Of a DNA stretch of 31,263 bases, positions 3,227-30,987 are shown piece after piece. Made by a program: the position numbers and the translations under genes. The notes beneath the pieces were generated by a model. The model saw only the letters and a program-made list of their open reading frames with translations. It was not told the origin of the DNA and did no database searches. Source of the DNA: a virus (Duplodnaviria > Heunggongvirae > Uroviricota > Caudoviricetes); the IMG/VR virus record IMGVR_UViG_2654587588_000015, positions 1-31,263 of that record. One strand, 5' to 3'. Positions within the stretch are counted from its first letter, which is position 1, and each line of letters starts with the position of its first letter.

Positions 3227-3516
3227 TGGTGGATTTACGTAAAGCGGCGCGGGGCCAGATGTGCCAGGTCAGAATCCCTGGCTACTGCAATCACAATCCC
3301 GAAACGTCTGTGCTGGCGCATTACCGACTGGCGGGAACGTGCGGAACGGCGATAAAGCCACACGATATGCAGGCAGCGATTGCCTGTAGCTCGTGCCACG
3401 ATTTAATCGACGGGCGGGTAAAAACCAGCGATTACACCAAAGAAGAATTACGCCTGATGCACGCAGAAGGTGTTTTTCGCACACAAGAAATCTGGAGAAA
3501 GGAAGGTTATTTATGA
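3226..3516 (+). CDS. YbcO-like (DUF1364) Cys-rich putative nuclease (96 aa)
   Basis: Start overlaps the upstream stop; multiple Cys/His; sits in the nin region before Q. Confidence 0.6.
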   Translation: MVDLRKAARGQMCQVRIPGYCNHNPETSVLAHYRLAGTCGTAIKPHDMQAAIACSSCHDLIDGRVKTSDYTKEELRLMHAEGVFRTQEIWRKEGYL

Positions 3517-4093: not shown

Positions 4094-4153
4094 TCCGAAG
4101 CGCCAGCAAAATCTGGCGTCGGGATTGGAACCCCGGATATCGAAACGGTGCAT

Positions 4154-4173
4154 ACCGCGCTGGCGGTTTTTTT
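4154..4173 (+). terminator. tR'-like rho-independent terminator
   Basis: CCGC-GCTG-GCGG hairpin followed by T7. Confidence 0.55.
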
Positions 4174-4336
4174 ATGCGCTAAGCACAGTCACATTCGCGA
4201 TTTATGGCGGGCTGTGTGGGGGCACCGAAAGGTGCACCGGATGTTTCGACCGGTAGTTCCAACCCTGCACAGTTCGCCACCCGATGATTGGAACCTGAAG
4301 GTGGTGAGGTAAAAATTATCGAAACGCGAGGTCGTT

Positions 4337-4900
4337 ATGACTGTTCAAGTTGCTGTCAAAAACCTTTCCCCTGTCACTTATAACCAGATTCCTGTAATCA
4401 CAACTGAGTTACTCGCCCGCCTTTACGGAACAGAAGCAATCCGTATACAGCAGAATCACCATAAAAATAAATCTCGATTTATTGAGGGAAAACACTTCTT
4501 TAAAGCTGTTGGTGATGAGCTCAAAAATTTGCGACTAGTTTTAAACGAGTCGCAAAATGAGGTGAAAATTTCTCCAAAAACCCGCTCCCTCATCCTCTGG
4601 ACAGAACGCGGCGCAGCCCGTCATGCCAAAATGCTCGAAACCGATCAGGCGTGGGATGTGTTCGAAAGACTGGAAGACTGCTATTTCAGACAAAAGGATC
4701 CGTCAGCGCCAGTTTCATGCCAGAAAAGTTACGACACGCGAGTTCTCTGTTATCAGCAAGGCGGTGTCACTGTTTCCACAATTCAGTTGCGGGATGATGA
4801 TATTGTTATTTCCCTTGAGTCATGGCTGGAACTGGCGAGAGCCAATGGTTGGTTTGTTGTTCGCAGAGATAAACTGGTGGAAAGGCTGATGCAGCTTTAA
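4337..4900 (+). CDS. ORF6N/KilA-N-like putative antirepressor or DNA-binding protein (187 aa)
   Basis: N-terminal region resembles recalled ORF6N-type domains; followed by its own terminator. Confidence 0.5.
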   Translation: MTVQVAVKNLSPVTYNQIPVITTELLARLYGTEAIRIQQNHHKNKSRFIEGKHFFKAVGDELKNLRLVLNESQNEVKISPKTRSLILWTERGAARHAKMLETDQAWDVFERLEDCYFRQKDPSAPVSCQKSYDTRVLCYQQGGVTVSTIQLRDDDIVISLESWLELARANGWFVVRRDKLVERLMQL

Positions 4901-26397: not shown

Positions 26398-27074
26398 GCA
26401 AATACACCGAACTAATCACGAACTACCACGCCACCAAACCTAAATTTCTTGCACATGTTGATCTGATGACCCGGCCGCTTATTGATGTTGCGGCGGCCAC
26501 CAGAGGGCTGATTACTGCATTTGATATTGACTCTGCGGTTGGTGTGCAACTTGACATTCTGGGATTGTGGATCGGACGTAGCCGTGTTGTCAGCCAGCCT
26601 ATCTCAGGTGTCTATTTCAGCTGGGATACCGACGGGCTTGGATATGATCAGGGGGTATGGCAGGGACCATACGATCCTGATTCCGGATACATGTACCTCA
26701 GCGATGAAACTTATCGTGTCATTCTTAAAGCGAAGATTGCGATTAATAACTGGGATGGACGGAATGATTCGCTTCCGGCAATTCTTGACGCGGCAACAGC
26801 AGGATCCGGGCTGCGAATGCAGATAGTCGATAACCAGGACATGACGATATCGGTCTGGGTCTTTCCTGATACTGATATTTCAGATGTATCGCGTGAGTTA
26901 ATTGCGGCAATTAAACAGGGGTATCTCACAGTAAAAGCCGCCGGGGTATGGGCGGGTGGCATTGAAACACCTTCGGTGGAAACCCCATCGGAAGGCTCAA
27001 AATTTTTTGGTTTTGATATGGATAACGAATTCATCAGTGGTTTTGATGTAGGAGCATGGGGAGTATTACTCTGA
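26394..27074 (+). CDS. Baseplate/tail protein, DUF2612 (e14 YmfQ-like)
   Basis: 226 aa ORF immediately upstream of the tail fibre gene. Confidence 0.55.
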   Translation: MSKYTELITNYHATKPKFLAHVDLMTRPLIDVAAATRGLITAFDIDSAVGVQLDILGLWIGRSRVVSQPISGVYFSWDTDGLGYDQGVWQGPYDPDSGYMYLSDETYRVILKAKIAINNWDGRNDSLPAILDAATAGSGLRMQIVDNQDMTISVWVFPDTDISDVSRELIAAIKQGYLTVKAAGVWAGGIETPSVETPSEGSKFFGFDMDNEFISGFDVGAWGVLL

Positions 27075-27721
27075 TGGCGAAAAATGACTTTAAAGCGTTT
27101 GCAACGGATCGAAATGCCAATGTTATATCGCAGGAGGAATGGGAAGCGTTGCCCGCGCTTTTATCCGGATTTACAGCAGGGAAAGCCTCCAGTGCGCAAG
27201 TCAATAAGGTTATTCGGCAGGCCAGCTTTATTGCTGCAGCTCTGGCCCAGTTTGTAAGTGATAAAACGCAACGGGATGTGCTTGATAATGGTGATCTGCC
27301 CGGTTTTGTTGAATTGCTGGGATCGGGGTTTGCTGTTGAATACCTGAGCCGCAAGAATCCGTTTGGCGATATCAAATCGGATGGCACTGTGCAAACGGCT
27401 CTCGAAAACCTTGGTTTAAGAGCAAGCGGGCAGTACACCGATAATTTGTTATTTACAGGTCCTGATGGTCTTAAGATTCAGGTGTTTCGCCGGACGCTCG
27501 CAAATTTGACTACTGTCGGTGTAGTAAATTCTGTGCCAGTGACTTTCCCTGTCCCGTTCCCTGTTAATTGCTGGGGCGTTTTTTCTACCAAATTAACATG
27601 GGTTCAGATAACTAACTCATGCGAGTGGGTAAGCAATACAGGATTTACCGCTCAGGTCATGATGAATATTGCTGTAAATACAAACACCTCAGACGCTATG
27701 TTTTTAGCTATAGGATATTAA
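27056..27721 (+). CDS. Tail fibre protein (constant N-terminal part plus currently expressed variable C-terminal part)
   Basis: Typical fibre N-terminus MAKNDFKAFATDRNANVISQEEWEA; crossover site lies inside the gene. Confidence 0.75.
   Translation: MGSITLMAKNDFKAFATDRNANVISQEEWEALPALLSGFTAGKASSAQVNKVIRQASFIAAALAQFVSDKTQRDVLDNGDLPGFVELLGSGFAVEYLSRKNPFGDIKSDGTVQTALENLGLRASGQYTDNLLFTGPDGLKIQVFRRTLANLTTVGVVNSVPVTFPVPFPVNCWGVFSTKLTWVQITNSCEWVSNTGFTAQVMMNIAVNTNTSDAMFLAIGY
27399..27424. repeat. Invertase crossover site (gix/pix-like), left boundary of invertible segment
   Basis: CTCTCGAAAACC-TT-GGTTTAAGAGCA; inverted copy of the site at 29232-29257. Confidence 0.55.
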
Positions 27722-27722
27722 T

Positions 27723-28163
27723 ATGAATCGTTTTGTGTTCAGTCCATCTGAGTCCCGTTTTTATGCCATCGAGTGGCAGGCTGATTATGTTGATAATAAT
27801 TGTTGGCCGCATGATGCCATTAACGTTAGTGACAGCATTTATTATGAGTTTTCCGGCGCTCCCCCTACAGGTAAGCAACTTATAACTTTAAATAACATGC
27901 CATCATGGGGTGATATTCCTCCACCTACACGAGAAGAATTAATTGTCGCTGCTGATGTGGAGAAGCAAAAAAGAATAGATTTAGCCAATGATTACATGAA
28001 CGGTAAGCAATGGCCTGGTAAAGCAGCTATTGGTCGTCTGAAAGGTGAGGAACTGGCACAATATAATTTGTGGCTGGATTATCTGGACGCACTGGAGCTG
28101 GTCGATACTTCCGGTGCGCCAGATATTGAATGGCCTACGCCTCCGGCAGTTCAGGCCAGATGA
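27723..28163 (+). CDS. Tail fibre assembly protein
   Basis: Tfa-like N-terminus; C-terminal motif LDYLDAL...DTSGAPDIEWP shared with the minus-strand paralogue. Confidence 0.8.
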   Translation: MNRFVFSPSESRFYAIEWQADYVDNNCWPHDAINVSDSIYYEFSGAPPTGKQLITLNNMPSWGDIPPPTREELIVAADVEKQKRIDLANDYMNGKQWPGKAAIGRLKGEELAQYNLWLDYLDALELVDTSGAPDIEWPTPPAVQAR

Positions 28164-28740
28164 CGTCCGGCGCTGTGCTGGTATCTGTTGCCGTCACCGC
28201 GTCAATGTAATCCAGCACAGCGTTAAGCCGGGTTGTTTCTGCCTGCGTCAGCTTCCGCCCGGCCTGTAATTTCAGTTGAATCAGACTAATGGAAGCCATT
28301 GCAGCATCAATCAGTGACTGACGCTGTGCTTCTGCCGCTTCGACTGCTGCGCTATGCTGTGCCTCAGTATCGGTCACCCATTTCTCACCATCCCATTTAT
28401 CGTATGGCGTTAATGGAGCGATAGTGGTTGTATTTTCAGGGTAATCACCCGGAGCTGTGATTTCTTTTGATTCTCCTGTTTCAGTGCTATAGACCGTTTC
28501 ACCGCGATGGTCTGGCACATATTCCCATGAGTTAAAATCTGCAGAACGGCAAATTGCATAACCAGCTTTATATGAGCCAGGAGCATCTAAACAGGAACAT
28601 GCCGGGATACCGACACCCACAGCAAGATATTCAGTTGATGTGGAAATATATTCCCGTGTCTCACCATCATAATTGTAAACGGTAATGTCTCCCGCCTTTG
28701 TGGTGATGAGTTCGCTATTTAATACAGCTTTATTCATCAT
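28135..28740 (-). CDS. Alternative tail fibre assembly protein (inverted orientation)
   Basis: C-terminal motif LDYIDAV...DTSTAPDVIWP; convergent with the plus-strand tfa. Confidence 0.8.
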   Translation of the reverse strand: MMNKAVLNSELITTKAGDITVYNYDGETREYISTSTEYLAVGVGIPACSCLDAPGSYKAGYAICRSADFNSWEYVPDHRGETVYSTETGESKEITAPGDYPENTTTIAPLTPYDKWDGEKWVTDTEAQHSAAVEAAEAQRQSLIDAAMASISLIQLKLQAGRKLTQAETTRLNAVLDYIDAVTATDTSTAPDVIWPELPEA

Positions 28741-29244
28741 GCGGCCCTTACGATATAATTAAAAGCGATGTTACGAGGACGAGTTTCTGTACCTACATTT
28801 TCACTAATTTCACCATAACGTTTAACACTACGAGAGCTAGTAGCTCGTAGTGAGGAAGGCACATTAAGACCGGGTTCGTCCGTTTTAACTATTCCCCCGT
28901 CACCGTATGTAGCCAGTATTCCTGGGTTTACTCCTTCCCGTGCACTTCCTGCGGCGAGTCCGTCCCCTGTCCATAATTCCATATAGTGTGCATGGTCCAA
29001 AATTGTGTGTGGCTGCCAATTAAGCAAAGCGCGACCAGTATCAATCCCGCGACCGTCATCCCAGCCACGAATAAATTCACCGCGTAAATCAGGCAATTTA
29101 TTGGTCGGGTAAGCCTTTGCCAGTTCCGGGTATTCTTCAGCAGAAAAAGCCGCACCGTTGCATTTCAGCCAGCCTGTTGGCGGTGTGACTGAAGGCCACG
29201 GAACAGGCACACCAACAGGTAATGCAGAACCTTCTCCCAAACCA
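28737..29244 (-). CDS. Alternative tail fibre C-terminal cassette, silent in this orientation
   Basis: Open frame runs from crossover site 2 on the minus strand; in-phase with the fibre constant part after inversion. Confidence 0.65.
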
Positions 29245-29257
29245 ACGTTTATGAAAA
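29232..29257. repeat. Invertase crossover site (gix/pix-like), right boundary of invertible segment
   Basis: TTCTCCCAAACC-AA-CGTTTATGAAAA, resembles recalled gix/hix consensus. Confidence 0.55.
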
Positions 29258-29311
29258 TGCAGAAATAACGAGCAAATGGCATCATTCCTGCTTTTGTCAG
29301 GGAGATCTACC

Positions 29312-29866
29312 ATGCTTATTGGCTATGTACGTGTGTCAACAAATGACCAGAACACAGATCTACAACGTAATGCGCTGAACTGTGCAGGATGCGAGCTGAT
29401 TTTTGAAGACAAGATAAGCGGTACAAAGTCCGAAAGGCCGGGACTGAAAAAACTGCTCAGGACATTATCGGCAGGTGACACTCTGGTTGTCTGGAAGCTG
29501 GATCGGCTGGGGCGTAGTATGCGGCATCTGGTCATTCTGGTTGAGGAGTTGCGCGAACGTGGCGTTAATTTTCGCAGCCTGACGGATGCTATTGATACCA
29601 GCACACCGATGGGGCGTTTTTTCTTTCATGTGATGGGTGCCCTGGCTGAAATGGAACGAGAACTGATTGTTGAACGAACAAAAGCTGGACTGGAGGCTGC
29701 TCGCGCACAGGGACGAATTGGCGGTCGCCGTCCCAAACTTTCACCAGAACAATGGGCGCAGTCCGGGCGACTAATTGCATCAGGAGTTCCTCGCCAGAAG
29801 GTGGCGATCATTTATGATGTTGGCGTATCGACTTTGTATAAGAAGTTTCCAGTCGGAGATAAATGA
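29312..29866 (+). CDS. pin: Serine DNA invertase (Pin/Gin/Hin/Cin family)
   Basis: MLIGYVRVSTNDQ N-terminus with catalytic Ser region and C-terminal HTH; track ORF begins at an upstream in-frame ATG at 29276. Confidence 0.9.
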   Translation: MLIGYVRVSTNDQNTDLQRNALNCAGCELIFEDKISGTKSERPGLKKLLRTLSAGDTLVVWKLDRLGRSMRHLVILVEELRERGVNFRSLTDAIDTSTPMGRFFFHVMGALAEMERELIVERTKAGLEAARAQGRIGGRRPKLSPEQWAQSGRLIASGVPRQKVAIIYDVGVSTLYKKFPVGDK

Positions 29867-30170
29867 AACCGTAGCACGTCGTATGCAAGAACGTGCCACG
29901 GCTGGCTGATGGACGTTCGATAGCGCGAGTTTGAGTGAAAATCAGCCTGAGGTGATTTTACATAATTGTTGCAGAATCATTCAATATAGGGATTGCTTAT
30001 TTCTGCCTGGATTGGTCTGAAATAGTCCCGAAATTTTCTCTAAAAAACTCGAAAAAAATGGTAACTAATTGAATGCATTAATATGCAATGGTACGTGTTT
30101 GGGATTAAAAGATGAGCGTAATTTTGCTTAACACATTAATTTAAAAAGGGTTTCTTGTTTGTTGACGAAA

Positions 30171-30196
30171 ACAGGAATCGTGTTCGGTCTCTTTTT
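30171..30196 (+). ncRNA. SdsR (RyeB)-like sRNA 3' end with terminator; candidate attR core
   Basis: ACAGGAATCGTGTTCGGTCTCTTTTT resembles my recollection of the SdsR 3' terminator; upstream sequence is not SdsR-like. Confidence 0.35.
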
Positions 30197-30330
30197 ATCT
30201 GTTAAAAGCCAGAAGCATTTCCTTCGCTGACTTTATAGTCAACCATAACACACACTCTACTGTCTGAGTCCAGCGTTTTTTAACATTCTTGTTAAGATTA
30301 TGTGATCTTTAGCGCGGGAGGAAAATATTG

Positions 30331-30987
30331 ATGAAACAGCCTGCGCCCGTTTATCAGAGAATTGCGGGTCATCAATGGCGACATATCTGGCTTTCTGGCG
30401 ATATACACGGTTGTCTTGAGCAGTTGCGCCGCAAATTATGGCATTGTGGTTTTGATCCGTGGCGAGATTTACTTATCTCAGTGGGAGACGTTATCGATCG
30501 TGGGCCGCAAAGTTTACGTTGCCTGCAGTTACTGGAACAACATTGGGTTCGTGCGGTAAGAGGCAATCATGAACAGATGGCGATGGATGCGCTGGCATCC
30601 CAGCAGATGTCTTTGTGGTTGATGAATGGCGGCGACTGGTTTATTGCGCTGGCAGATAATCAACAGAAACAAGCGAAAACGGCGCTGGAAAAATGTCAGC
30701 ATTTGCCCTTTATTCTTGAAGTACACAGTCGTACCGGCAAACATGTTATTGCTCATGCCGATTATCCAGATGATGTTTATGAATGGCAAAAGGACGTTGA
30801 TTTGCATCAGGTCTTGTGGAGCCGCTCGCGATTAGGTGAACGCCAAAAAGGGCAGGGAATTACAGGTGCTGATCATTTCTGGTTTGGTCATACACCGTTG
30901 CGACATCGCGTGGATATTGGCAACCTGCATTATATTGATACCGGTGCTGTCTTTGGGGGCGAACTGACTCTTGTGCAATTGCAATAA
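30331..30987 (+). CDS. pphA: Ser/Thr protein phosphatase, PPP family (PphA/PrpA-like), host gene
   Basis: Motifs GDIHG, GDVIDRG, GNHE read in translation; ATG 30331 with GGGAGG RBS. Confidence 0.85.
   Translation: MKQPAPVYQRIAGHQWRHIWLSGDIHGCLEQLRRKLWHCGFDPWRDLLISVGDVIDRGPQSLRCLQLLEQHWVRAVRGNHEQMAMDALASQQMSLWLMNGGDWFIALADNQQKQAKTALEKCQHLPFILEVHSRTGKHVIAHADYPDDVYEWQKDVDLHQVLWSRSRLGERQKGQGITGADHFWFGHTPLRHRVDIGNLHYIDTGAVFGGELTLVQLQ

Follow-up and report, generated by a model that had tools for sequence, protein, structure and literature searches.

The sdsR-like 3′ end upstream of pphA as the attR of a lambdoid prophage integrated into the sdsR terminator of Escherichia coli

The segment comprising positions 29867-30327 of the DNA analysed here (31,263 nucleotides of the IMG/VR virus record IMGVR_UViG_2654587588_000015, hereafter the window) is almost certainly the attR of a lambdoid prophage of ~43 kb, integrated by lambda-Int-type recombination into the terminator of the small RNA gene sdsR (ryeB), between yebY and pphA. 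This prophage would combine a Rac-like early region with myovirus-type structural genes and a pin invertase, and its attP carries a 37-bp imperfect copy of the sdsR terminator, strand exchange having taken place inside the shared sequence ACAGGAATCGT. At attL, a phage-supplied 3′ stem arm followed by 7 U would keep sdsR intact, and at attR the loop, the 3′ arm and the U-tract of the host are joined to a degenerate phage 5′ arm. The casualties of this event would be the antisense RNA RyeA and the read-through transcript from sdsR to pphA. The initial annotation of this segment, made from the sequence alone, had proposed an attR formed by integration into the 3′ end of an sRNA gene, and this proposal was upheld, as host identity started in the SdsR terminator and the sequence on its left side was absent from unoccupied genomes.

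The genes and the hairpin that flank the junction were the following:

29312-29866, + strand: pin-type serine DNA invertase, final phage gene on the left of the junction (Pfam Resolvase, 1.1e-51, and HTH_7)
29869-29901, + strand: hairpin directly 3′ of pin, without a U-run (fold of -15.5 kcal/mol, z = -1.2)
30331-30987, + strand: host pphA, a serine/threonine phosphatase (Pfam Metallophos; the K-12, E9 and PEC209 annotations concur)

It had been stated that the phage genes end with pin and that an AT-rich intergenic region follows, and both statements agreed with what was observed, since pin, with its Resolvase and HTH_7 domains, ended at 29866, pphA ran from 30331, and the spacer between them presented 33-37% GC versus ~50% in the flanks. 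The Pfam match of the invertase began at residue 15 of the ORF opening at 29276, in agreement with a MLIGYVRV start at 29312, and its syntenic counterpart in the related genome PEC209 was annotated as pinE. The start codon of pphA was an ATG at 30331, with a TTG in frame at 30328. Lacking a U-run, the hairpin directly 3′ of pin is not a canonical terminator. With Rfam CssrB, this block matched the 3′ hairpin below the threshold (31.8 bits, threshold 76), and in lambda, HK97 and phi80 it was 75-85% conserved following the genes for tail fibres. Beside pin, positions 27056-29866 contained oppositely oriented tail-fibre and tail-fibre-assembly ORFs (27723-28163, +; 28135-28740, -; 28737-29285, -), a layout that corresponds to the invertible host-range segment of the Gin/Cin/Pin type.

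The boundary between phage and host was placed by comparing positions 29867-30327 with 5426 complete E. coli genomes by megablast. The segment 30166-30327 was matched in every one of them (5426/5426), with 98-99.4% identity, while 29867-30165 was present in only 228, where the full 461 bp were matched. The reverse search, performed with the unoccupied K-12 yebY-pphA spacer, revealed that it was continuous in 5189 and split in 237 of the 5426 genomes; the sdsR/ryeA site was thus occupied in 4.4% of them, 228 carrying the same att/int module. The exact junction was lacking in nine interrupted loci, of which two were sampled and corresponded to a variant from the same integrase family and to an IS1 insertion. 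In strain FDAARGOS_944 (L006, NZ_CP065613.1, 3249-3946), an IS1A was found between yebY and pphA, removing or displacing the left part of the sdsR/ryeA spacer, which is a kind of interruption other than a prophage.

In K-12, the spacer comprised 395 bp and contained sdsR/ryeB (RF00111, 114.4 bits) and ryeA/sraC (RF00101, 175.1 bits) on opposite strands. Alignment of the window to this unoccupied yebY-sdsR/ryeA-pphA locus, which had been suggested as a check, showed identity from the loop of the SdsR terminator rightward and none leftward. A second step was observed between the window and the junction of PEC209, which carries the closest relative of the window's prophage, in which identity was ~90% up to ~30156 and 100% rightward, indicating the boundary of a mobile element. 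No tRNA or tmRNA gene was found in the window, and a tRNA-type att site was therefore rejected.

The point of recombination was delimited by an alignment of attB, attL, attR and attP, from which two features were defined:

30166-30202, no strand: att homology region, with 32 of 37 bases common to attP and attB
30171-30181, no strand: identity block ACAGGAATCGT, which must hold the strand exchange, bounded by the diagnostic positions 30170 and 30182

For this alignment, attP was reconstructed from two phage-derived halves, that of attR in the window and that of attL in the relative E9. In the phage collection, the free phage PP818812.1 presented one continuous match of 478 bp to the reconstructed attP (45978-46455, 93.3% identity). 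The core of this phage (pPE4), ...TTGACGAAAACAGGAATCGTATTCGGTCTTTTTTTAATTG..., was identical to the prediction, and the integrase gene adjoining its attP encoded a protein 98.3% identical. A related attP was also found in the Salmonella element OK490361.1, whose integrase was 74% identical. Two diagnostic bases distinguished the parental sequences, namely position 30170, which is A in the phage and T in the host, and position 30182, which is G in the host and A in the phage; both segregated reciprocally in attL and attR, which places the exchange inside ACAGGAATCGT. This block consists of the 7-nt loop of the terminator, AGGAATC (30173-30179), and two bases on each side. Lambda Int acts on a 7-bp overlap lying between inverted core sites. 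By analogy, the AGGAATC loop is the likely overlap region in this system, in which case the arms of the stem would serve as the inverted core-type integrase sites.

The att/int module is mosaic, being joined to different morphogenetic modules in pPE4 and in the window. The two had hok and Ea22-like early genes in common. The record PP818812.1 (42978-47508 of which is locus L003) is named 'Actinobacillus phage vB_Apl-pPE4', with A. pleuropneumoniae as stated host; its integrase, at 98.3% identity, matched those of E. coli prophages and its attP core copied the E. coli sdsR terminator. To judge from these sequences, pPE4 appears to be a phage of E. coli, and the stated host is questionable. It was also observed that the P′ arm harbored a second copy of the right half of the core, (GT)ATTC(C)GGTCTTTTTT, 85 bp from the core, the two repeats lying at 3312-3322 and 3397-3407 in L003 and at ~1527 and 1611 in L004. 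This copy was kept between the E. coli-type and the Salmonella-type attP, and it could represent an extra core-type site or a terminator remnant.

On the host side of the exchange, the window retained a single fragment of sdsR:

30171-30196, + strand: orphan sdsR 3′ end (loop, 3′ stem arm and U-tract), non-functional alone, with a 26/26 match to K-12

The sequence of this fragment, ACAGGAATCGTGTTCGGTCTCTTTTT, occurred once in the window, with 0 chance matches expected, and was identical in 26 of 26 positions to the 3′ end of K-12 SdsR (L001, 3506-3531). The initial annotation had recognised this similarity with one mismatch. The match to SdsR at 30171-30196 stood, and the mismatch did not, for the base in question was the G at 30182, which K-12 also carries, so that the window bears the allele of E. 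coli K-12, A being the base at this position in the Rfam consensus, in the Salmonella-type attP and in the phage copy. The 5′ stem arm had in turn been described as not SdsR-like. This description was only partly sustained, as the arm (GAC-GAAAAC) agreed with GACCGAATAC in 8 of 10 bases, with one deletion, and was nonetheless too degenerate to form the hairpin.

It might be supposed that the orphan 3′ end retains activity as a terminator or insulator and protects pphA from transcription coming from the phage, given that its 3′ arm and U-tract are intact and that the phage 5′ arm resembles that of the host at 8/10 bases. However, the hybrid sequence of attR folded with only -4.9 kcal/mol (z = +0.63), and 148 of 200 shuffled sequences folded as well or better. 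The native SdsR terminator of attB and the hybrid formed at attL both presented an 11-bp stem with -15.8 kcal/mol, and the terminator scan, which reported a site in each of these two, found no terminator at attR. Regarding the criteria for rho-independent termination, the U-tract was present at attR and the stable stem was lost. A role as terminator is therefore very unlikely, and it was rejected by the folding and the terminator scan.

The Rfam scan of the whole window at gathering thresholds, a check suggested beforehand, gave nothing at the junction locus. Only a permissive scan revealed partial hits at attR, and both sRNAs scored in full at attL. SdsR (RF00111) reached 22.1 bits (E = 0.19, threshold 38 bits), with the 3′ end alone aligning, and SraC/RyeA (RF00101) reached 26.9 bits (threshold 37) at 30200-30097, the RyeA match covering only the 5′-proximal segment that overlaps the SdsR terminator. 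Since nothing beyond these partial, sub-threshold hits was obtained, a second sdsR copy was dismissed.

The weak hits over 30097-30200 (SdsR 22.1 and RyeA 26.9 bits), together with the sdsR terminator core that the phage attP carries of its own, would also be compatible with a partial sdsR copy or mimic borne by the phage, acting as a phage sRNA or decoy and not derived from host DNA at a junction. Against this idea, the sequence from 30182 rightward was 100% host DNA that ran unbroken into pphA in all the E. coli genomes, the phage-derived part remained below the Rfam thresholds and had neither the SdsR seed nor the 5′ region, and no hairpin formed at attR. Moreover, the alleles at 30170 and 30182 described a hybrid, with phage sequence on the left and host sequence on the right. 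The comparison of attB, attL, attR and attP thus refuted a phage-borne copy, which can be regarded as extremely improbable. With sdsR complete at attL, and with attR below the thresholds and devoid of the hairpin, the sdsR fragment found here is a scar of integration that has no function, neither an sRNA gene nor a terminator.

The opposite end of the prophage was examined in relatives. A second copy of the att core was searched for in the window as a mark of attL, and a single copy was found, which indicates that the window starts inside the prophage and that its own attL lies out of view. The exact prophage of the window was absent from the complete E. coli genome set, and because the best match reached 85% coverage at ~97% identity, relatives were used for the left end. 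The attL and the integrase of the window's prophage are accordingly inferred from relatives that share the att module, among which E9 presented an attR 99.8% identical to that of the window.

A prophage of ~43 kb was found between yebY and pphA in the junction-bearing genomes that were checked, E9 and PEC209. In E9, the order was yebY, sdsR, a tyrosine integrase, an excisionase, ralR/recT/recE/kilR and the remaining Rac-like early region. In PEC209, a single stretch of 47 kb contained yebY, CGAATACAGGAATCGTATTCGGTCTTTTTTT, int, xis, ..., the structural genes, pinE, CGAAAACAGGAATCGTGTTCGGTCTCTTTTT and pphA, the two imperfect copies of the repeat being 43,206 bp apart in one record. Hence, the direct repeat and the integrase that were expected at the other boundary were indeed observed, ~43 kb away and beside an excisionase, in these two relatives. 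The attL junction was detected in 228 genomes, a count equal to that of attR. The integrase of E9 harbored the domains Arm-DNA-bind_1 (28.1 bits), Phage_int_M (40 bits) and Phage_integrase (61.7 bits) and was 41% identical to the HK022 integrase, and the gene beside it matched the Exc excisionase family.

At this far end, sdsR was full-scoring, and its last ~15 bases were phage-derived. Rfam returned 118.1 bits for SdsR and 179.1 bits for RyeA at attL; the score of SdsR was slightly above that of K-12 because the end supplied by the phage fits the family consensus and has 7 U. By analogy, the prophage of the window would have at its own attL an intact sdsR ending in ...CGTATTCGGTCTTTTTTT.

The junction could be real and nevertheless belong to a fixed defective relic, the orphan being then a scar without a current role in recombination. 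The early region is decayed in the relatives, with several pseudogenes in E9 and an IS1 and a frameshift in PEC209, and the left part of the window's own prophage falls outside the window. However, the att/int module was ~93-100% conserved in 228 genomes of unrelated sources, the integrase and the excisionase were intact in both E9 and PEC209, and the structural gene set of the window was uninterrupted. In addition, one phage isolate, sequenced as a linear genome, carries this attP and this integrase. These observations make a relic improbable, and an attR of a prophage with a conserved recombination module remains the preferred reading.

On the phage side of the junction, three features were recognised:

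29867-30170, no strand: AT-rich, phage-derived P arm of attP (in 228/5426 genomes; contiguous with the P′ arm and the integrase in PP818812.1; phage A at 30170)
30027-30035, + strand: candidate arm-type integrase site CCCGAAATT, a 9-mer repeated in attP, with predicted binding
30062-30074, no strand: TAACTAATTGAAT, a 13-bp block invariant between the E. coli-type and the Salmonella-type P arms, the rest of the arm having diverged

The AT-rich sequence at 29867-30165 is the P arm of attP, and according to the proposed mechanism it would bear arm-type integrase sites and sites for accessory proteins. A degenerate second copy of the candidate arm site, CTCGAAAAA, was located at 30048-30056. In pPE4, the 9-mer was found at the equivalent position of the P arm and, in addition, as three tandem copies (CCCGAAATT, CCCGAAATT and CTCGAATTT) in the P′ arm, which separates the core from int. 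The 4.5-kb locus of this phage contained five matches to the 9-mer versus 0.45 expected, four of the five within attP. The candidate sites had a lambda-like spacing relative to the core, with those of the P arm at ~-145 and ~-120 bp and those of the P′ arm at +45 to +75 bp. The TCGAAAT core of the motif was conserved in the Salmonella-type attP. From their repetition and placement, the CCCGAAATT repeats are candidate arm-type integrase sites, and the conservation of the TAACTAATTGAAT block suggests that it is possibly an accessory-protein site.

The consequences of this insertion for the host were considered in the light of a published study of the E. coli locus (PMC6610125). There, RyeA was described as a sigma-70 transcript of 261-272 nt that spans all of SdsR, with its promoter 3′ of sdsR, between +132 and +222 relative to the sdsR start, and most pphA mRNA was found to start at the sdsR promoter and to result from transcription past the sdsR terminator (PMC6610125). 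L001 has the RyeA terminator at ~3300-3341. The published promoter segment, the length of the RNA and the position of this terminator together place the RyeA start near L001 3572, that is, at 30237-30238 (-) of the window. This estimate was preferred to a simple sigma-70 scan, which misses the known ryeA promoter even in K-12. Two further features of the window follow:

30171-30238, - strand: stranded 5′ segment of ryeA/sraC, ~67 nt (from the published coordinates of the RyeA fragment, the RNA length and the terminator)
within ~30239-30318, - strand: sigma-70 promoter of ryeA, just upstream of the stranded segment (from the coordinates in PMC6610125)

From these published data, the RNA split by the insertion would be RyeA and not SdsR. 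At attR, the ryeA promoter would be left with the initial ~67 nt of the gene, pointing into the P arm and pin, and the body of RyeA that is complementary to SdsR would lie 43 kb away in the lysogen, downstream of int. The whole prophage would separate pphA from the sdsR promoter, breaking the read-through transcript. A split of RyeA agrees with the report, cited in PMC7380047, that lysogeny by the Salmonella phage PhiW104 lowered RyeA and raised RyeB.

A further, tentative possibility, which we regard as rather less likely than not, is that the prophage acts as a regulatory switch and not as a neutral passenger in ~4% of E. coli strains, in which the RyeA antitoxin or sponge and the convergent interference would be lost, SdsR would go up, pphA would be cut off, and a chimeric transcript antisense to pin would start at the ryeA promoter. 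If this is the case, the ryeA promoter would have been moved 43 kb from sdsR, and the SdsR terminator would have been improved, with an A-U for a G-U pair and 7 U versus 5. The chimeric transcript, running through the P arm of attR, could moreover tie the growth phase of the host to excision or to tail-fibre inversion. As the arrangement is present in ~4% of the complete E. coli genomes, studies of the SdsR/RyeA toxin-antitoxin pair and of pphA expression across strains should consider whether the site is occupied.

Integration into a symmetric RNA 3′ end by a phage that bears the replacement is a textbook principle. The junction described here is an ordinary attR at a documented site, already known and without departure from the known kind. 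The claim that the sdsR/ryeA locus is an insertion hotspot was corroborated for Salmonella by Balbontin, Figueroa-Bossi, Casadesus and Bossi (J Bacteriol 2008), according to the accounts in PMC7380047 and PMC3603311; phage PhiW104 uses the final 23 bp of ryeB as its attachment site, and these bases form an insertion hot spot. Island catalogues also contain elements already named by the target 'RyeB'. As in PhiW104, the target in E. coli comprises the last ~23 bp of ryeB/sdsR, the terminator that is internal to ryeA, with sdsR kept and ryeA split, and the Salmonella element OK490361.1 carries a homologue of this attP core together with the same arm repeats and a 74% identical integrase. In contrast to the Salmonella site, the host here is E. 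coli, the attP differs from the host sequence at 5 of 37 positions, and the att/int module is carried on another phage body, with Rac-like early genes, a myovirus tail and pin. The loss of sdsR read-through for pphA, in turn, was deduced from the 2019 E. coli study, no lysogen study having been found.

Compared with lambda and HK022, the system has in common an arm-binding tyrosine integrase (41% identical to that of HK022), an Exc-family excisionase, an int gene reading toward attP and AT-rich arms, in which the predicted sites are three in tandem in P′, ~45-75 bp from the core, and one or two in P, ~120-145 bp from it. However, the target is the sdsR terminator and not the gal-bio attB of lambda, the core sequence differs, and so does the consensus of the predicted arm sites, CCCGAAATT. 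The likeness to integration into the 3′ ends of tRNA and tmRNA genes, in which the gene is restored by the phage copy (Campbell 1992; Williams 2002, cited in PMC3603311), includes a symmetric stem with a 7-nt loop as the core, a replacement 3′ end at attL and an orphan at attR. The difference is that the target is the terminator of an Hfq-type sRNA, and since this terminator overlaps an antisense sRNA, restoration is one-sided, reaching SdsR and not RyeA.

For annotation, these results mean that the SdsR-like fragment 5′ of pphA is an attR scar, which fixes the right boundary of the prophage within 11 bp. At the same locus, a single insertion would have repaired one sRNA (SdsR), split its antisense partner (RyeA) and uncoupled the downstream gene (pphA). 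In Yersinia enterocolitica, an ail-carrying prophage with an att site of 27 bp has been reported next to a gene of the YebY family (PMC12653942), and this prophage may use the same sdsR-type target. Finally, the prophage in the window contained three RNAs above the Rfam thresholds, namely sok (106.7 bits, 1744-1915), which adjoins a hokD-like toxin, isrK (72.1 bits, 4100-4173) and the C4 antisense RNA (72.8 bits, 4200-4284), the last two being adjacent and upstream of the ORF at 4337, an arrangement that corresponds to the antirepressor-type control module of Gifsy-1 or P1.
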